From the IMG/VR virus record IMGVR_UViG_2974632988_000001, positions 1-59,922 of that record: a stretch of 59,922 nt of DNA. One strand, given 5' to 3'. This DNA is from a virus (Duplodnaviria > Heunggongvirae > Uroviricota > Caudoviricetes > Herelleviridae). Shown piece by piece: positions 24,248 through 37,947 of the stretch (positions are counted from its first letter, which is position 1; each line of letters opens with the position of its first letter). The position numbers and the translations under genes were made by a program. The notes beneath the pieces are model-generated. The model worked only from the letters and a program-made list of their open reading frames with translations, made no database searches and had not been told where the DNA came from.

Positions 24248-24688
24248 ATGACAAGACATACACGCGTAAGACAGATTCATAAGTTTAAAGGAACAAAAGC
24301 AGCATTCGTACAGAATGAACCAATCAAAGATGCGGTAGCGTTTTACAGAGGTCTTGAGGACTTAGATGCATCTTTCCATACAGTTACAACAATCAACCTT
24401 AAGAAAACATATGGTAAAACGCTATTAGGTAACTACAGACTACAGAAGAAGATACAAAAACTTAAGAAAAAGTACAATGGTCAAGTACCGTTACTATGGA
24501 AAATTATAGACCTAGCTAAAAAGAATCCTAAAGTATTAAAGGAAAATAAATACTACCTATATGAAGATGGGACAGGACGTTTCTACACATATGAGTTAGG
24601 TAGAAAGACTATCTATGGATTTATCAGTGACTATGATAAGGCTAGTTACTTATACTTCGATAAACTAGGGAATAAATACTTGGGATAA
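24248..24688 (+). CDS. TRH-family paralogue 5
   Basis: MTRHTRVRQ ... EDLDASF; AGGAGGG RBS. Confidence 0.75.
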   Translation: MTRHTRVRQIHKFKGTKAAFVQNEPIKDAVAFYRGLEDLDASFHTVTTINLKKTYGKTLLGNYRLQKKIQKLKKKYNGQVPLLWKIIDLAKKNPKVLKENKYYLYEDGTGRFYTYELGRKTIYGFISDYDKASYLYFDKLGNKYLG

Positions 24689-24926
24689 GGAGAGATACAT
24701 ATGGAAGTACCTAAACATGTAAGAGTACATATTGTAAACGCTGCTGCGGCTTATGCAGTAGCTACCGTCAGTAATGAATACGTTAGAGACTGGATGGAGA
24801 AGAATGACATCTATAATGACTTTGTAATAGACAACCTAATAGATGCAACAGAGATGACGAATAACCCGGAAGAGTTTATCAAGTTTCTAGAGAAACATAG
24901 TAAAGAAGAATTAGGAGGATAATAAC

Positions 24927-25127
24927 ATGGAAGAAGTTAATTTAAAACATAGGTACTGGATATTCGATATACCCGAGTTTTACCCGACAGGTGGATTATC
25001 AGATATTACATTTACAACAGACAGTGTAGTTCATGCGCTTACACAGGTAGAAGATGACCCGGACTTAATTTTATTCGATTCTATCACAAGATTATACTAC
25101 TGGGAGGAGGATGACGAATGGCGATAG
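24927..25127 (+). CDS. YP-x-GG family paralogue
   Basis: RYWIFDIPEFYPTGGLSDI; AGGAGG RBS. Confidence 0.7.
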   Translation: MEEVNLKHRYWIFDIPEFYPTGGLSDITFTTDSVVHALTQVEDDPDLILFDSITRLYYWEEDDEWR

Positions 25128-25303
25128 TATTCCTTATTACAATTGTATTCGCATTCATCTGGTCAACATATAAGTTATTCGATGGATTCTCACATATACG
25201 TAAGTACACTGTAGGTAGGTTCATGTTACATGCCGTTATATGTGCCACTACAGGAGTAGCGCTAATCATACATATTGCGTTTTGGTTTGTAGAGCGACTA
25301 TAA
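25118..25303 (+). CDS. Small two-TM membrane protein
   Basis: Two hydrophobic helices; GGAGG RBS; followed by an AGCGAC/GTCGCT hairpin. Confidence 0.65.
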   Translation: MAIVFLITIVFAFIWSTYKLFDGFSHIRKYTVGRFMLHAVICATTGVALIIHIAFWFVERL

Positions 25304-25969
25304 CAGGTCGCTTCTCCTTTACTTATTATATCTATACATGCAAATAATACAATACAGAATATTCATTGCTCCGAAAAATTTTCGTATTTTATTGTTGACT
25401 TTAAGTTAATGATGGTGTATTATAAAGGTATAACAAAGAGGAGGTAATACATATGTTTAATTTATTCGTAGGGTTCGTGCTAATATGGTGTGCTATTCAC
25501 AATGATATGAATAGAGGGAAGGATGGGAAGGCGTTAACGACATTGTTAATCTTCATGGCTATTCTCAATATATGTATAGGGGTGTTCTAATGGTAAATAT
25601 ATGGGCAGGTTCTATGCTTATGTTTATGCCGATGTTGTTCTTGGTCGATATGATAATGGATAGTATAGAAGCTTATAAAGGGTGGGAGATGCGTATAATA
25701 CCTAGATTAGTAATAGCAGCTATTATATCTGTCCTTATAATAAGTGGTATAGACTGTATGGCATTATGCGTGAGGTAATGTTTACGTTTAAGATGCGTTT
25801 AATTTAGGTTAAAAAAATTTTTGTGAAAAATTTGAACCCCGGGTAGGCGGGAGGTAGGTACCATCCCCGAACATATGGTCTATAAAGCACGGGGTGGGTT
25901 ATATCTATGAAATTGAATATAGAAAAGGGTTGACAAAATAATACTTGACAAACTAGCATATTCATGGAA

Positions 25970-26173
25970 TCAAATATAGATGACTTTAGCTCCTTCACTC
26001 ATACGCGTTCGCCTTTCCTCTGTCCGTCTCTTCATTGCTATTGACTTAGTAGCGCATATATGCTCACGTACCAGTAGACCGTCGAATGTATGGACTGTAA
26101 ACCTCCAGTTGCCTGTATAGAGTTTGACGGGCTTATCAATGATATACGTATCACTAGTATAGTATAAGCTCAT
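25970..26173 (-). CDS. Small early protein (start corrected to ATG 26173)
   Basis: GGAGGTGA RBS before MSLYYTSD; last gene of the minus-strand block. Confidence 0.65.
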   Translation of the reverse strand: MSLYYTSDTYIIDKPVKLYTGNWRFTVHTFDGLLVREHICATKSIAMKRRTEERRTRMSEGAKVIYI

Positions 26174-26520
26174 GCTCTCACCTCCATCGCATATTGAGTG
26201 ATAGTATTGCATGCGCTATAGGACGCTTGCGCTAGGTGTGATAGTCCAACGCTCGTGACTCTATCGCCTATATAGATTCCATGATATACCTTCTTAATAC
26301 GGCTCTCAATGAATTGCATTTCAATAGCTATAATATCATTGCGCGTGTCATTGAAAGCGCCGTCTATAAGCTCACTAGCCTTAGTCAATCTATCGTTAAT
26401 ATCATTGACAATATCAGTAGTATATGCAATGCCCTGCTCCCACTGGTCGGCTAGATAGTTAGCGTAATTAGCAATCCCTTTTAATTCAATAATAGCAAGC
26501 TCCATTTTAGCAGTTAACAT
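26170..26520 (-). CDS. Early hypothetical protein (start corrected to 26520)
   Basis: AGGAGCTGTTTATT-ATG leader shared with neighbouring early genes. Confidence 0.75.
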   Translation of the reverse strand: MLTAKMELAIIELKGIANYANYLADQWEQGIAYTTDIVNDINDRLTKASELIDGAFNDTRNDIIAIEMQFIESRIKKVYHGIYIGDRVTSVGLSHLAQASYSACNTITQYAMEVRA

Positions 26521-26545
26521 AATAAACAGCTCCTTTATATAATAA

Positions 26546-26731
26546 TTATGAATATATTTCATCTTCAAATACTTGTAATTCTTCACCAGTTGACAAACGT
26601 ATAATATACATGACAACCCCGTCGAACGCGTCATACTCATTAGCGTTCATCGGTCTAACTAATGTAAAAGTCTTTCCATTATGCATAAGCAAGTCACTTT
26701 GATTAGTATTGAATACATTATTTAATTTCAT
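26546..26731 (-). CDS. Small early protein
   Basis: Same AGGAGCTGTTTATT-ATG leader. Confidence 0.75.
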   Translation of the reverse strand: MKLNNVFNTNQSDLLMHNGKTFTLVRPMNANEYDAFDGVVMYIIRLSTGEELQVFEDEIYS

Positions 26732-26764
26732 AATAAACAGCTCCTTTTAAATTGTCAGAATATT

Positions 26765-27268
26765 CTAGCAAGTATATACAAATACCTGTTCGCTAATATC
26801 ATATGTACGCTTTAATTTAGTACGCATAGCACGAGCATGTTTTAGAGCGTCCTTTTCATTATAGAATGTGCCAAATGTAGGATAGATAGATTCGCCGTTG
26901 TCAAGTACAATTTGAACCTCACAGTCGTATACCTCTGCTCCGTCCTCTTCTGTGTTATATACAGCGACCTTTACGTTTTCAATTTCTTCGTACCATTGCC
27001 CTTTTAATTCATCCGCGATAGCCTCTTTAAGCTCCTTAAGAGTCTTTAGGCTATTAGGTGCCTTTTCAGTTTGGACAACCTCTGCTTCGATTAACTCAAC
27101 CGTTGCATGATGCATAATCACATGATAGATATCAACTTCATTTTCAATCCAAAAGTGAGTTTGACCTTTAGAGAAATCCATAACTTTACCCTCTAATACA
27201 CGACCACTATTGAAAGTAACTTTTACCTCTTGACCTAATTCTAATTGACCCATTTCTAATGTTTTCAT
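26765..27268 (-). CDS. Early acidic hypothetical protein
   Basis: GGGAGCTGTT leader; promoter TTGACT(27325-30)-17-TATAAT(27302-07). Confidence 0.8.
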   Translation of the reverse strand: MKTLEMGQLELGQEVKVTFNSGRVLEGKVMDFSKGQTHFWIENEVDIYHVIMHHATVELIEAEVVQTEKAPNSLKTLKELKEAIADELKGQWYEEIENVKVAVYNTEEDGAEVYDCEVQIVLDNGESIYPTFGTFYNEKDALKHARAMRTKLKRTYDISEQVFVYTC

Positions 27269-27432
27269 ATCTCAACAGCTCCCTTTTCTTAAGTTAATTT
27301 TATTATAATATGTACTTTACTAAAAGTCAACAACTATTTTCAACTCGTTGTCGCTCGCTTTAACTAACCTTATCTTAATACTATTATACGCAATTGACAA
27401 GCCCTTTATGACAAATAATTAAAGTTTAAATT

Positions 27433-28330
27433 TTCTGAATATTCGTACTAGTATAACCTGTCTAAATTATCAGAATATTCATAATAAACTTTTAAATTTA
27501 CTTATATATAATAGTATGATAGAATCACGCGCACCTGCTCATACATGCATATATAGAAACTTTTAAATTGTCAGAATATTCAATTAGTCAGAATATTATA
27601 ATTACTTTCCATACCACAAAACTTCAAATCTGTCAAACTTATTTTAAAGGCTCTCAGAAGCCCGTAGAGGCGTTTTAACCTATCCCCCTAGTATTTGTAT
27701 TAGGAAGCCTTCTAAAAGCTCATACAAGAGAAATAGCCCCTCAAACTAGTAATACCAAGGCTTCCCGCTTTCATAGAATCCATGTAAATTGTCAGATAAT
27801 AAGAATATTCTAAATAGTCAGAACATTAACGCAATTCAAACAGCTCCCTATATATACCACAACCTATTATATATGTCAAGTTAATTATGTATTCAGAATT
27901 GTCATACTATTCGTACAACTGCTCCAATCATAAATATTACCATTTGTCAAGTTAATTATATATTCTAAATTATCTGACTATTTAGACAACTATCCTAAAG
28001 TATTTAGAATTATCAGAATATTATGCAAATTATAATAAGTATAGTTATCTGACTATTCTGTCTATTGCAGCAGCATGAACCGTCCTAATTGTCAGACTAT
28101 TCTGCACATTATAATCATTCTCTTATTATATATAATAAAGTTATCTGATAATTGCGAATATTCTAAATAGTTTTACTTCTTTTCATCTCTTGCATTTCAT
28201 CTCTTTTTACTTTAACATACGTGTTAGACAAATGAACGTTTAGCAAGCTGTATATAATATTCTGACAACTTACACATCTTACTATTAGGATATAACCTTC
28301 ATGTTTTCAGAATTGTCAGTCTATTATATA
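27433..28330. repeat. Cluster of ~15 degenerate palindromic sites, consensus TT(G/A)TC(A/T)GA(A/C)TATTCTGACAA
   Basis: Copies near 27433, 27467, 27568, 27585, 27789, 27800, 27815, 27899, 27970, 28010, 28045, 28089, 28141, 28256, 28313; outliers at 25354, 26752, 37772. Confidence 0.85.
27664..27725. other. Imperfect long hairpin with TATTTGTAT loop, copy 1 (copy 2 at 33884-33944)
   Basis: Arms GTAGAGGCGTTTTAA / CTAAAAGCTCATAC; inner CCTA/TAGG stem around the conserved loop. Confidence 0.6.
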
Positions 28331-28368
28331 TAAGGCGTTTGTTTGTCAAGTGGATAAGAGATATAGTG

Positions 28369-28402
28369 AAGACTAGTATTCCAGCGGGCTACTAGTCTTT
28401 TT
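28369..28402 (+). terminator. Terminator-like hairpin
   Basis: AAGACTAGTA/TACTAGTCTT 10-bp stem followed by a T run. Confidence 0.7.
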
Positions 28403-28615
28403 GTGTTATTTGTAGTTGACTACTTACATTTCAACCTTATAATATATGACTCTATTAAACCCCGCGCCCCGCCTCCTCTTATAGATGCAACTTATATACT
28501 CTAGTGTGAGCAGGGCATCAAATTCAAAAGCTGGGGCTTGGATTATTTTTTTTTGTAAGGCTTTATTTTTTGTAAGGCTTTAACCTTTTCAAATTGTTAT
28601 TATATATAATAAACT

Positions 28616-28783
28616 TTAGCCTTTATATAGTACACTCTCTTTAAATTCAGTAACTATACTTTGAACAATAAGAGGTGAGAGCGTCTTTTCTAGTCCTTTT
28701 ATATACTGTAGTAATGTTTCCGACTCTCCTTTATTATATATAGAATACATCTCATGTAATATACCTTCTCTGTTATAATTCAT
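28616..28783 (-). CDS. Small protein, 55 aa (not in ORF track)
   Basis: AAAGGAGC RBS; MNYNREGILHEMYSIY... Confidence 0.65.
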   Translation of the reverse strand: MNYNREGILHEMYSIYNKGESETLLQYIKGLEKTLSPLIVQSIVTEFKESVLYKG

Positions 28784-28804
28784 TATATAAAGCTCCTTTT
28801 TTAT

Positions 28805-29005
28805 TTATAGTATTGTTGTATCCTCTATGCCTACAATATCCTCATTAGGTATATATCTATTTGTTAACCTTCTATGTTTATATATAGCTAGTTTTGTTAT
28901 ATTTGCGTTTACCTCTACAATCTTTCCACTTATCTTATATGTTTTATTACTCACTATTACATCTAGTGTTACATGTCTATTTATATATCTTTCCATGTCT
29001 AACAT
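28805..29005 (-). CDS. Small Sm/SH3-like beta protein
   Basis: AGGAGCTGT leader; alternating beta pattern. Confidence 0.65.
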   Translation of the reverse strand: MLDMERYINRHVTLDVIVSNKTYKISGKIVEVNANITKLAIYKHRRLTNRYIPNEDIVGIEDTTIL

Positions 29006-29020
29006 TATATACAGCTCCTC

Positions 29021-29200
29021 TTATAGTATTATGTATTCTATATCTATTTTAAAGTAACTCACTGTACGTTTAATAGGTTTATCAGGTGATTCTCTTAAGA
29101 ATAGTATAACATCATTACTTGTATACATAGCACTATCTATATAATATATGTTTCCGTCTTTATGTTGAACTCTCTTCCCTGCTAACTCTTTCATGTGCAT
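29021..29200 (-). CDS. Small protein, 59 aa (not in ORF track)
   Basis: AAAGGAGC RBS; MHMKELAGKRVQHKDGNIY... Confidence 0.65.
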   Translation of the reverse strand: MHMKELAGKRVQHKDGNIYYIDSAMYTSNDVILFLRESPDKPIKRTVSYFKIDIEYIIL

Positions 29201-29232
29201 TATTTAATAGCTCCTTTATTATATATTATATA

Positions 29233-30914
29233 TTAGTCTTTATAGTATATGAGTATGCTTGTTATCATTTCTACTTTACTTTGAATGAAGTCATATATTT
29301 CCATTGTTATTTCTGATTCTATATGATATGTCGTGTGAAAGTCTAAGTTATTACATTGTACATACCCCTCATACTTATATGTTTCATTGTTATACATAGC
29401 GCTTATAACCGTTTCAATATGTTTTAACTTTACTCTGTATCTATATGAGCCTATTGTGTCCATTTCCATTTCTTCTACAATGTAGTCAGTACCTTTTGTA
29501 AATTCTTTTGCGATAAGTTCACAGTTTCTTTTATATATTTCTTTACTGGATAAGAATGTCATTATATTACATCTCCTCTATATTTAACTCAATCATAGTC
29601 ATGTAGCTATTAATAGGTATTACAAAGTGTTTGATATTCATTTCTTCTAGTGTGCTTTCCATTTCGTTTACATCATCCGGTTTTATATACACTCTTCCAT
29701 CTTCTAATAATATTTTAACCTTTTCATGTAGTTTCATTTTAAGCCTCCTCTCCGTCCGCTGTGTGCGTTCTGTGTTTATAGAATGCATTGTATAGTTCAT
29801 CGGCTTTAACGCCTGTCACGTAGTTGTTATTTGCGTTATCCGGCTCATGTGGGTAGTCTTCGAACTCTTCACCAATATCTCTGATATAGTCGTCACCGTT
29901 GTAATCCCCTAATAGTAATGAAATGGTATTCAATTCCGCTTGTGATAGTACAGCAATGTAACGCCCTTTTTCAACCGCTTCTATTTTAGCCATTGTTTTT
30001 CCTCCTCTAATTGGATAGTTATATATTAAAAACTAATTGCAAATACTTTGTATCCTTTTTCTGTCACTAAGTAACTTTCCGCCTGTTCTATTGTATTATA
30101 ATGAGACTCACAGACTTGTAAAGCCTCTTCTTTAGAAATAGCCTCGCCTATATCCTGTTCGCAATTCTCGAAAATAGCTGTTATAATATACATTTATTTT
30201 TCCTCCTTTAGTTGTTCTGCTAACTCTATAATTTCTTTTCTACTCAAGTAAATTGATTTATAATCATATCCATCTTTTGCGAGTGGGTTCAATTGATTGA
30301 TTTTAACCATATTATGTTTACTATCTATGTGTACGCACGTTGTTTCATTCACGTCTATTCTAGTCATTATTGTTGACTCCTTCCATTCTGTTTAGTATTT
30401 CATAGCGTGTATAATCTTGTAAAATGTATCTTCCCTCGTGTTTCCATCCTTTTGAAATCCATCTTTCTAACTTTTCGTAGTAGTGTAATAATTCTTTGTT
30501 TGTTAGGTCTTTTAGTTGACTTCCCTTTATAATAGCGCTCTCCGGTACGTTAAACCCTTCGTTCTCTTCTTTTAGTCTTGTAAATACCTTTTTAGTCATT
30601 ACTTAAACCTCCTCATAAGGTGAATAGTCCGTATTAATATTATATGTTTTAATAACTTGTTCTAACGCTACAAAGAAAACATCTTTACTAGTTGTAATGG
30701 TTGTATGTTCTTCACCGTTTGAACCTAGTTTATAATTAGCAAAGATTTTAAATTCATTTTGATTGTTTCCGTTAATCTTAAATGATACAATCACGTCATT
30801 ATCAGGGTGACCGATATAATATTGATGCGCTAATGTTAACCAGTGATATTTTAGCCCTAATTCTTGGAATGTATCTTCTAAAAAATTTCTCATACCTGTA
30901 TATGTTACTTTCAT
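29233..30914 (-). other. Early operon of 7 small CDS (30603-30914, 30360-30599, 30194-30367, 30026-30193, 29739-29993, 29567-29737, 29233-29562)
   Basis: Driven by the repeat promoter at 30980. ORFs abut with GGAGG RBSs; two were read by hand (57 aa and 55 aa). Confidence 0.7.
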
Positions 30915-31387: not shown

Positions 31388-31741
31388 CTATTTACAATTT
31401 CTTTTTAATCCTTTTAAATAGTCCATACCAGCAAATGTTAAACGTATTTTAGTTTTCTTATGTCTCCCTTTTGCTGATATAGTCACGTAACCTTGTTTTT
31501 CTAACTCGTATGCAATAGCGTAAAATTGGTTTATGTCTTGTATGTTAGATTTATGATAAGCGCTGTGAATACTTATAGACTGATATGCAGAGTTCTTTTT
31601 CAGATGAGAAGCTCCACAACAAATCATTTCCATTGTATCCCCTCTTTCCAAACCCTCTGCTATAATCATTTTGTTATGTTCTTGTTGTTTTCTAACAGCC
31701 TTCGCAACCCCTAACAATACGATTAAGTTATTCTTGTTCAT
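31388..31741 (-). CDS. Winged-helix-like cassette protein
   Basis: C-terminal YELEKQGYVTISAKG..IRLTFAGMDYL wHTH pattern; its TAG stop lies inside the next repeat. Confidence 0.65.
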   Translation of the reverse strand: MNKNNLIVLLGVAKAVRKQQEHNKMIIAEGLERGDTMEMICCGASHLKKNSAYQSISIHSAYHKSNIQDINQFYAIAYELEKQGYVTISAKGRHKKTKIRLTFAGMDYLKGLKRNCK

Positions 31742-31816
31742 TCACAGCGCCCCCTAATTAATAAGTTCATTTATCTTACTTATAATATTAAAGGGTTATT
31801 ATCCAAAAGTCAACAA

Positions 31817-32884
31817 CTATTTAAAAGTTATTTCGCCCTTCTTTGTATCGATTTCTTTTATTTCATCCTCTATTAGTCTTGTAACGGCTTTTTGCGTCGC
31901 TGATACACCTTTATTGTATCCTATTATGTAAGTACTATAACCGGCACTAACAACGCATGTAAGCCCTATAGCACCTGTTATAATGATTTCGTTAATATCC
32001 ATTGTAATTACTTCCTACTGTTTCTTGTCTCATTGCTGATATTATATTAACTATTGATTGCTCTTCATAATCATTGATTTCTCTCATCATATCATTAAAT
32101 TCTAGGTAACGCCCGCTTGTTAGTAACATAGCAAGCCTCCTCCCTGTATCCCATTCACTAACATTAATAACATCACTAGGTTGTAATGTCCCGTATTTAA
32201 ACTTATACATTACTTTTCACCCTCTTTCTTATCAATTTCTTTTTGTAATGCTACAATTAACTTTTTCGCTCCATGTGTACCGACTTTACTTAAAATCTTT
32301 TTTGCAAACTCTGTATACGTACCGATGATAATACTTTTCATTTTAATTTTCCCCCTTTAATACTCTAATAAGTGAGCTTAATTGTTTTAATTGCAATTCT
32401 ACTGTTAACATATGAGAGTATAGAGCTTTAATTTCACGTTGTACCGCGTTTTCTAGTTCTGTCTCTCCTTTATAGTAGAATTTTCTTTCTTTTGCGTTCT
32501 CCATTTGCATTTCTAAAAGCTCTTTTGTGCTTTCCATTGTGATTAGGTTTTCTTCCAATAGCTCAACCGCGTTCATTGTTTTGTAGTCCATATTCCCCGC
32601 CCCCTGCATTATGCTTTTGGTAGACTTTCCATATATTCATAATATTCTTTTTCCACTTCGTCAAGTCGCTTTTGTGCCTCTTCTCTTGTGTTGAATCCAT
32701 CTTCTATAACTTCACATCCACTAGAAATAACGTATTCACTATTATCATAAGGTAGTGTGATATCGCCTTCCAACCAAGTAACCTCTAAAGGCTCTTCGTC
32801 AAGCCCTTCTTCTCTTAATTCTCGGTTAATATCCTCTACATTTCTAAATACATTTTTCCATTCTTCAAAAGTTAATCTTTCCAT
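31817..32884 (-). other. Cassette operon of 5 small CDS (32609-32884, 32343-~32600, 32210-32341, 31992-32210, 31817-32002)
   Basis: Behind the repeat at 32940. The last gene has a TM helix and ends in the TAG of the next repeat. Confidence 0.7.
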
Positions 32885-37342: not shown

Positions 37343-37639
37343 TGATACCATCGTATCATATTCGTTTACTTTAAGTCAACAATTATTTTGAATCCTTTTT
37401 ATTTATTGTAATTTCAAGCCCTAAAGCGTCTAGAACTTTGAATAATGTAGTTAGTGTGCATTCTCCGCCTTTTGAAATGCTGTTAATTTTATACGAATAT
37501 ACTTTTTCTGTTTTCGCCTCTACTTTTCTATAGGAAATCTTTTGTTTCTTCATTTCCGCTGTTATCGTATCGCCTACATATTTGTGAGTGTTTGCCATTG
37601 CAAAACACCGCCTCTCTTTAAGTTGATACCATCGTATCA
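37343..37639. promoter_or_regulatory. Two perfect TGATAC-CATC-GTATCA inverted repeats (37343-37358, 37624-37639) overlapping -10 boxes
   Basis: Identical 16-mers in the HTH gene's own promoter and in the next cassette promoter. Confidence 0.7.
37383..37598 (-). CDS. XRE/Cro-like helix-turn-helix regulator (start corrected to ATG 37598)
   Basis: ITAEMKKQKISYRKV...INSISKGGECTLTTLFKVLDALGLEITI; GAGGCGG RBS. Confidence 0.75.
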   Translation of the reverse strand: MANTHKYVGDTITAEMKKQKISYRKVEAKTEKVYSYKINSISKGGECTLTTLFKVLDALGLEITINKKDSK

Positions 37640-37824
37640 TGTAATTCACTAAAAGACAACAACAAATTTATATATTTTTCGTTTTTCGTGTTTCTTCCTA
37701 TATAAAGAAAAATAGGCTTTTCGTTTTCCTTCTATATAAGGGGACTTTTTTCACTTTGTAACGTTTATCAATTGTCAGAATATTTTAATCGTTATATCGC
37801 ACTTGCCGGGCGTGGCTTTTTGTG

Positions 37825-37947
37825 GTCTGCTACTTACGTTTTAAGGGCTTTTTACAGTCTGCTACTTACATTTTAAGGGCTTTGTGCAACCTGATACTAC
37901 CTTTTACAATCCGCTACTAGGTTTCGAATTTTTTGGTGCGCTACTAA
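37825..37947. repeat. 27-bp direct repeat with 32-bp period plus degenerate GCTACT units
   Basis: GTCTGCTACTTAC(G/A)TTTTAAGGGCTTT at 37825 and 37857; degenerate units at 37891, 37911, 37938. Confidence 0.8.

Follow-up and report, generated by a model that had tools for sequence, protein, structure and literature searches.

A dense array of CodY-like boxes in the terminal repeat of a Bastille-like Bacillus phage, predicted to be operators of a host regulator

CodY, a nutrient-sensing repressor of Bacillus and other low-GC Gram-positive bacteria, acts on 15-nucleotide pseudo-palindromic boxes, AATTTTCWGAAAATT, functional sites usually having at most 3 to 5 mismatches to this consensus. Where boxes overlap at a 9-nucleotide register, binding by two or more CodY dimers is cooperative, and the optimised double site is AATTTTCAGAATTTTCAGAAAATT (PMC10415144). 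The strong CodY site II of Bacillus subtilis braB, which has been defined experimentally, is made up of tATTaTCTGAcAATT and AATTgaCAGAAtATT, and the braB CodY motifs are located at -64 to -50 and +14 to +43 (PMC4608796). The B. cereus and B. anthracis CodY proteins have the same consensus, with four mismatches accepted (PMC5633148), and in S. salivarius boxes with a G at position 5 (G5 boxes) are present ahead of the genes most strongly regulated by CodY (PMC5966866). Here, a dense array of boxes resembling these (27429–28325) is described in the terminal repeat of a phage known from a single-contig virus record of 162,598 bp (IMG/VR record IMGVR_UViG_2974632988_000001). The DNA analysed, called the window below, is the first 59.9 kb of this record (59,922 nucleotides). 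As judged by DNA similarity, the phage is a Bastille-like Bacillus cereus-group myophage (Herelleviridae, Bastillevirinae, Bequatrovirus).

Sites for host regulators have been met before in phages. In the phi29 family, Spo0A boxes and parS sites have reportedly been shown to function by experiment, in work by Meijer, Castilla-Llorente, Salas and co-workers. The likeness to our phage is that of a virulent Bacillus phage with sites for a global regulator of the host by its early promoters and genome ends, the host state gating the lytic cycle; the regulator and the motif are different, however, the sites are few instead of forming a dense array, and in our case the function is predicted. The long direct terminal repeat of Escherichia coli phage T5 contains a repeat-rich non-coding region at which injection stops, for which a binder is not established. 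It is likewise a gene-free, repeat-dense stretch in a terminal repeat that also carries the first-expressed genes, but its repeats are unrelated in sequence and its host is E. coli. The terminal redundancy of SPO1 contains clustered strong early promoters and sites for TF1, a phage-encoded protein that recognises hydroxymethyluracil-containing DNA. Like our phage, SPO1 belongs to the Herelleviridae and has many sigma-A early promoters in its terminal repeat, overlaid by sites that a DNA-binding protein prefers; it has none of the CodY-like boxes and its TF1 is of phage origin. Finally, CtrA sites in the promoters of Alphaproteobacteria phages have been read as timing lysis to the state of the host ("lytic deferment"; PMC9437464). 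These phages share with ours promoters that carry sites for a host master regulator, and differ in host phylum, regulator and phage families and in having no terminal-repeat array.

The 15-mer array in the terminal repeat

The best DNA matches are at the ends of linear records, beneath annotated terminal repeats. Both ends of the annotated repeat_region of Spock (2800 bp) and of Flapjack (2806 bp) align to window positions 25842 and about 28532. The direct terminal repeat (25842–28532, borders inferred by homology) is therefore around 2.69 kb long and is collapsed to one copy in our assembly. A minus-strand terminal block, CTAGAG..GCATCT..GAGGAGGCGGGGCGCGGGG, is recognisable at the annotated repeat ends of phiNIT1 and phiAGATE, which supports the border, and GG or GGGG follows both inferred cut sites. 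At about 25.8 kb the gene orientation changes from the plus to the minus strand. A 64-amino-acid GTG open reading frame (25804–25998, minus strand) straddles the left border at 25842 and is therefore probably no gene. No open reading frame of at least 40 amino acids is found between 27269 and 28615. The array occupies this gene-free outer 1.2 kb of the repeat, 205 to 1100 bp inside the inferred physical end, where the DNA contains about 70% A+T.

A sequence-only reading of the window had noted a dense array of an operator-like palindrome at 26752–28330, with a 20-bp palindrome as its consensus. The copies it listed are present, but the recurrent unit is a 15-mer, AATTRTCWGAMTATT, centred on the W of TCWGA. 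Only positions 26752–26771 come close to the longer palindrome (two mismatches), the only near-perfect one in the window; at the other sites its second half is degenerate, yet A22 and T24 are kept. Allowing up to two mismatches, the 15-mer occurs at 20 distinct positions in the genome, of which 14 are between 27429 and 28325, one is at 26750 and one, a perfect copy, at 37770. In 300 dinucleotide-preserving shuffles of 26700–28400, matches average 0.18 and number at most 2. Of the 14 array sites, 12 or 13 are on the plus strand, depending on how near-palindromic sites are assigned. Their spacing is irregular, from 17 to 71 bp (for example 17, 26, 36, 40, 35, 44 and 71 bp), with no helical phasing.

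The array begins with two plus-strand sites, AATTTTCTGAATATT (27429–27443) and AATTATCAGAATATT (27465–27479), with one and two mismatches to the CodY consensus, respectively. These are followed, on the same strand, by AATTGTCAGAATATT (27566–27580) and ATTAGTCAGAATATT (27583–27597, two mismatches to the phage 15-mer), at about +21 to +35 and +4 to +18 of a minus-strand promoter at 27608–27636. Three sites surround a second minus-strand promoter (27851–27879). The first, at 27787–27801, is on the minus strand, where it reads TATTATCTGACAATT, identical to the B. subtilis braB CodY motif 2, and lies at about +43 to +57; the other two are plus-strand copies, AATAGTCAGAACATT (27813–27827) at about +17 to +31 and AATTGTCATACTATT (27897–27911) at about -67 to -53. 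The next plus-strand sites are AATTATCTGACTATT (27968–27982), which has TCTAA and TTAGA cores 9 bp on either side, and a second copy of AATTATCAGAATATT (28008–28022), which contains the best 24-mer of the array, with three mismatches to the CodY double box. Three further plus-strand sites, AGTTATCTGACTATT (28043–28057), AATTGTCAGACTATT (28087–28101) and AGTTATCTGATAATT (28139–28153, three mismatches to the CodY consensus), are retained in all seven aligned relatives. The clearest minus-strand copy, AGTTGTCAGAATATT (28256–28270), is retained in six of the seven, and the array ends with AATTGTCAGTCTATT (28311–28325, plus strand), a match to the phage 15-mer.

Outside the array, the 26750 site (26750–26773, plus strand), located between the repeat genes for proteins of 167 and 61 amino acids, has no mismatches to AATTRTCWGAMTATT and two to the CodY consensus; its equivalent is present in Spock, Bastille, OTK52, Chotacabras and LBC2. 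The distal perfect site, AATTGTCAGAATATT (37770–37784, plus strand), is located in the intergenic gap ahead of the first early gene. Both had been proposed as single outliers (at 26752 and 37772) and are real, the second being a conserved copy at the far end of the early cassette region. A third proposed outlier, at 25354, is not a copy, sharing the GAATATTC core alone, with about five mismatches. The perfect palindrome TTATTATATATAATAA, also pointed out before, occurs exactly twice in the genome, at 28123–28138 and at 28597–28612, the latter about 65 bp beyond the repeat border. Just beyond this border, short tandem repeats are found at 28545–28590 (TTGTAAGGCTTTA, twice), and phiAGATE has such repeats just outside its border (TAATGGTT, five times, at 471–570). 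A similar doublet, TTTTAAGGGCTTT with GTCTGCTACTTAC, is located beside the distal site (37830–37890).

Likeness to CodY operators

The phage 15-mer has one to three mismatches to the CodY box and its centre is freely A or T, as in CodY boxes; the individual window sites have one to four mismatches, within the range of functional CodY sites. Five array sites have at most two mismatches to the CodY consensus, against 0.02 in shuffles, and at up to three mismatches the array contains 12 of the 28 positions in the genome, against 0.36 in shuffles of the region. The braB sequence tATTaTCTGAcAATT (PMC4608796, Table 1) is identical to the minus strand of the 27787 site and AATTgaCAGAAtATT has a single mismatch to the phage consensus. 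A predicted CodY box of S. salivarius thrC is the exact reverse complement of the phage 15-mer (PMC5966866). Among 110 unique sites, A1 is present in 104, C7 in 104, G9 in 109 and T15 in 110, with both A and T at position 8, a result that is partly circular, the sites having been selected by the motif. A logo of these sites with their flanks reveals three additional conserved residues, T(-3), A22 and T24, which are exact 9-nucleotide shifts of T6, A13 and T15. These echoes recur in four separately evolved arrays, those of the window, Bastille, W.Ph. and BCP78, and may reflect the 9-nucleotide overlap register of CodY operators.

Clear overlapping composites are present in BCP78, LBC2 and three viral contigs, L045, L086 and L089 (IMG/VR contigs 3300009686_000008, 3300033463_000350 and 3300028797_000005). 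At BCP78 29261–29284, G5 boxes and canonical boxes with a T at position 5 (T5) overlap in one 9-nucleotide-phased run (AATTTTCAGAATTGTCAGAATACT). An exact-word scan found G5 and T5 boxes in the same register in the three contigs, which are related to each other and are not Bastille-like: L045 7636–7668 reads AATTGTCAGAATTTTCAGAATTTTCAGAATATT, and a perfect AATTGTCAGAATATTCTGACAATT is present in L086 and L089. The joint occurrence of the two box types in one register is evidence for a single protein. The three contigs are related fragments of large phages. They have 9 to 37 CodY-like boxes within a few kb, some of them in long runs phased at 9 bp; CGGC is often found ahead of the boxes, which have GCCGGCCGCC-like blocks between them. 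All three contigs have phrog_20187 and an NT5C-type deoxyribonucleotidase in common, and a sigma factor gene is present in L086.

Outside the window, a canonical double box is present at 84236–84259 of the phage genome (AATTTTCTGAATTTTCTGAAAACT), with one mismatch in 24 to the CodY double box. It is located 2 bp upstream of the -35 hexamer of a TTGACA-17-TATTAT promoter of the gene for a 434-amino-acid SSB-like protein (phrog_1867). In the orthologous gap of Spock (KF669662, 108513–108536), all 24 positions match the optimised double site. In 164 kb, chance would not be expected to produce a perfect 24-mer, and the lineage therefore keeps at least one unmistakable CodY-type operator. In Spock, the SSB-like gene is upstream of a RecA-like gene. 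A further CodY-like double box (142737–142760, outside the window, two mismatches in 24) covers the first codons of a tail assembly chaperone gene. This gene adjoins one for a 243-amino-acid protein (142876–143607, minus strand, phrog_4665) with a carboxy-terminal Rok-type winged helix (PF23159, 30.8 bits, cut-off 27.6), a DNA-binding domain that is unexpected in a structural module.

The array is interspersed with promoters. At its left, a sigma-A-type promoter of the 167-amino-acid protein gene (phrog_2236), TTGACT-17-TATAAT (27302–27330, minus strand), has 11 of 12 consensus positions and is kept in the Bequatrovirus relatives. It is followed by a non-coding block (27355–27425) that is nearly invariant in eight phages of two genera and contains no convincing promoter on either strand. 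A plus-strand promoter, TTTACT-17-TAGAAT with a TG (27497–27525), is much stronger in relatives, where the -35 hexamer is TTGACT or TTGACA; its Bastille orthologue is TTGACA-17-TATATA, also with TG. Over a pair of sites, it faces the two minus-strand promoters, TTGACA-17-TATGGA (27608–27636, the -35 hexamer kept in 8/8 aligned phages) and TTGACA-17-TATATA (27851–27879, kept in 8/8), both with a TG extension. A GC-richer non-coding element (27640–27780), with blocks conserved in 8/8 phages, separates the two promoter-operator units; the minus-strand consensus fold of the conserved 27636–27850 stretch is weak (-8.7 kcal/mol). At the right, about 125 bp inside the repeat border, there is an intrinsic terminator, a hairpin followed by a T run (28368–28405, plus strand, -19 kcal/mol, z-score -3.9), present in 8/8 aligned phages. 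The conservation of this plus-strand terminator implies that there is real rightward non-coding transcription through the array.

The three sites at the 27851–27879 promoter, at about -67 to -53, +17 to +31 and +43 to +57, have the same geometry at the Bastille promoter and a similar one at a promoter of W.Ph. Such positions, around -60, +24 and +50, resemble those at braB, and the motifs are clustered as at braB and ureA; the sites lie in a regulatory region, overlapping or downstream of promoters, as CodY operators do. From the opposed promoters, the terminator and the box positions, it follows that the array is a promoter-rich, bidirectionally transcribed control region with boxes at operator positions. 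The motif was also considered as a sigma-A element (a TTGTCA -35 or NNGAAT -10 hexamer), but a conserved partner hexamer at the right spacing is absent on both strands, and an SPO1-type middle or late promoter was rejected, there being no conserved upstream element. Sequence scans for DnaA, Spo0A, parS, Rex and TnrA sites detected no clustering; of 59 one-mismatch matches to Spo0A boxes (TTTGTCGAA type) in the genome, one is located in 26700–28550. LexA, Fur, ArgR, ScoC and Rok sites were ruled out on spacing or sequence, by eye only. An Rfam search of 24500–30000 gave nothing meaningful, and in four public RNA runs, from which the phage is absent, two poor reads matched 25800–29200.

Equivalent arrays are present at the same place in the genera Bequatro-, Bastille-, Wph- and Tsarbombavirus, with 9 to 22 sites: 9 in Flapjack and RonSwanson, 10 in Spock, 12 in Chotacabras, 13 in SWEP1, about 14 in BCP78, 16 in LBC2 and Bastille, 17 in OTK52 and about 22 in W.Ph. 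Scans of the complete records of relatives found almost no copies outside the arrays, and a reversed-pattern control gave 0 to 2 per genome. In an alignment of eight phages, identity to the window is 0.74 in site columns and 0.61 in the columns between them. As in the window, a solitary perfect or near-perfect site is located 5 to 10 kb away, ahead of the first early gene, in Spock (152682), RonSwanson (150175), OTK52 (150657) and Bastille (125350). In the W.Ph. and BCP78 arrays both orientations are about equally used, as expected for a symmetric dimer; the one-stranded look of our array is therefore no general property. Nituna-, Agate- and Caeruleovirus have two or three sites near the repeat borders. 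In phiNIT1, Grass and phiAGATE, which are phages of B. subtilis and B. pumilus, these are all within the terminal repeat, one by each border, and Bc431v3 probably has a similar arrangement. The motif is identical in the phages of B. cereus, B. subtilis and B. pumilus. In Listeria phage A511, four CodY-like boxes (AATTATCTGAATATT type) are present at 31706–32123, in a 670-bp non-coding gap between a tRNA cluster and gp66.

Proposed gating by CodY and other explanations

The sequence-only reading described the array as a platform with many sites for a dimeric DNA-binding protein, possibly at a terminal repeat. Both of these features are supported, but the origin and centromere functions it proposed are not, and it missed that the motif is a CodY-type box. 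This box makes a host protein the likeliest binder, and the phage encodes no helix-turn-helix of the CodY type itself. The likeliest reading, in our view somewhat more probable than not, is that the array consists of operators of the host regulator CodY, which would gate transcription through the terminal repeat. CodY binding, and the direction and purpose of the regulation, are what we infer from the motif and its enrichment, conservation and position in the repeat, from the promoter geometry and from the resemblance to known CodY sites. In a well-fed host, active CodY dimers would bind the 15-bp boxes after injection and spread cooperatively onto weaker boxes that overlap at the 9-bp register, repressing or roadblocking the promoters that fire both ways through the array; at the strong promoters, sites are found around -60, +24 and +50. 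Inactivation of CodY, in starvation, at entry into stationary phase or in sporulation, would release these promoters together with the read-through out of the early cassettes into the repeat genes. The distal site before the first early gene and the double box next to the SSB-like gene promoter may put other steps of the phage program under the same signal.

Several observations weigh against gating by CodY. At position 5, 92% of the 110 unique sites have G or A and 8% have T, although the same lineage has T5 where the canonical double box is retained; another protein could be behind this bias, or the choice of a particular class of affinity. Most window sites have a weak second box, the overlapping 15-mer showing five or six mismatches, and in both respects the phage sites differ from described CodY operators. 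They also differ in number, with 14 to 22 sites in about 1 kb, far above the chromosomal operators described in the papers cited, and in being on a virulent phage, in its terminal repeat. SPO1, phage K and phiEF24C have no site cluster though their hosts have CodY; in SPO1 there is one motif match, against 13 in the reversed-pattern control. A site is located 66 to 86 bp inside each repeat border in phiNIT1, Grass and probably Bc431v3, and 72 and 217 bp inside the borders in phiAGATE; these border-proximal sites in genera with few of them hint at a function at DNA ends. When bacterial genomes were scanned for a 24-mer palindrome, AATTRTCWGAATATTCWGAYAATT, there were nine hits, all in Lachnospiraceae or other Clostridia, adjoining PBP, ADH, radical-SAM, MCP, Cas6 and reverse-transcriptase genes, and none of these perfect palindromes is at a recognisable gene of the CodY regulon, an ambiguous result. 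Repression of early promoters in well-fed cells is not obviously useful, and no report of CodY binding or expression was found in the literature for this phage or its relatives. Perfect 24-bp palindromes, AATTATCAGAATATTCTGATAATT, recur in intergenic DNA of Lachnospiraceae and other Clostridia, three of them in a shared repeated context, and some adjoin defence genes (Cas6 and a reverse-transcriptase TOTE system).

A possible, if doubtful, alternative is that the boxes are operators of another dimeric protein with CodY-like specificity, most likely a conserved early or virion protein of the phage, which could turn early transcription off or give structure to the ends of the genome. The strong and consistent preference for an AATTGTC half-site, with many perfect AATTGTCWGACAATT palindromes in W.Ph., and the use of the canonical T5 box elsewhere in the same genome agree with this. 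So does the fact that the motif is confined to Bastillevirinae among the Herelleviridae tested; in addition, array and distal site bracket the early cassette region of about 9 kb in five phages, as they might for a dedicated early-region regulator. However, no candidate for such a protein was found, and no conserved DNA-binding gene adjoins the array. Spock and the window do not have the same genes beside the array, and the only helix-turn-helix family nearby (phrog_8522, 37383–37649), which had been put forward as a binder, is absent from Spock, Bastille, W.Ph. and BCP78, all of which have arrays. The identity or near-identity of sites to validated CodY motifs, and the mixing of the motif with canonical CodY runs at the 9-nucleotide register in unrelated viral contigs, also argue against a dedicated phage protein.

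It is rather improbable that the sites serve the DNA ends, be it as packaging recognition for cutting or duplicating the repeat or as anchoring points by which the end injected first or packaged last is held or protected, comparable to the injection-stop region of T5. Such a role would fit the closeness of the array to the inferred physical end and its strongly one-stranded disposition in the window. OTK52, phiNIT1 and Grass have a site 86 to 110 bp from the end of the record, and the sites near both repeat borders of phiNIT1, Grass and phiAGATE have the same reading direction inward. On the other hand, terminase recognition regions of the cosB or pac type have oriented sites at a fixed short distance from the cut, to which the small terminase binds, whereas here the site count varies between 2 and 22 among genera, the distances to the borders vary and both orientations are used equally in W.Ph. 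and BCP78. In our phage, Spock and their relatives, the other repeat border lacks a nearby site. Moreover, the sites track promoters, and conserved ones are also present between the repeat genes (26750) and 9 kb away (37770).

Much less likely, the motif is not read by any protein and its copies are by-products of the duplication of a promoter-leader unit in fast-evolving non-coding DNA. Several copies do lie within longer local duplications (a 50-nucleotide unit at 27871 and 27942; 27787 and 28139), but the 15-mer is kept while its flanks diverge, as the column identities given above indicate. The same 15-mer also recurs in genera without detectable similarity of the surrounding DNA (phiNIT1, phiAGATE, BCP78 and W.Ph.), and solitary sites are conserved 9 kb away.

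Least likely of all is the proposed replication origin, with the boxes as iterons for an initiator and the TTATTATATATAATAA palindromes as unwinding elements: many same-strand repeats in an AT-rich region free of open reading frames, and a turn of the cumulative GC skew near 26 kb, would suit it, but the turn coincides with the switch in gene orientation, the spacing is irregular and unphased, one weak DnaA-like box is present and no cluster, the neighbouring genes are of unknown function, with no initiator or replication gene adjacent, and TTATTATATATAATAA has two copies only, one of them outside the repeat. A parC-type centromere, which is an iteron cluster directly upstream of parM and parR to which the RHH protein ParR binds, was also suggested before, for the ParM-RHH-FtsK module; it was rejected, since the module (50.6–56.5 kb) is more than 22 kb away and contains no site with up to two mismatches.

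If the array is indeed a set of CodY operators, a broader and rather speculative proposal is that the terminal repeats of Bastille-like phages are built to recruit the host nutrient sensor CodY in bulk, as a switch or as a sponge. As a switch, the array between convergent promoters would defer or redirect the lytic program when the host starves or sporulates. As a sponge, around 30 sites per genome, multiplied by replication, would titrate CodY and derepress the amino-acid supply genes of the host, to the advantage of the phage. No paper describing CodY boxes on the genome of a lytic phage was found in the literature.

Bastille-like phages are biocontrol candidates against the B. cereus group, and if CodY gates their first-expressed region, the success of infection would depend predictably on the nutritional state of the host. 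This would be a second independent case, after Spo0A and phi29, in which a virulent Bacillus phage takes its cue from a master regulator of its host, with a nutrient sensor in place of a developmental regulator. CodY, in turn, would gain a large extrachromosomal target, which could shift the CodY regulon of the host during infection.

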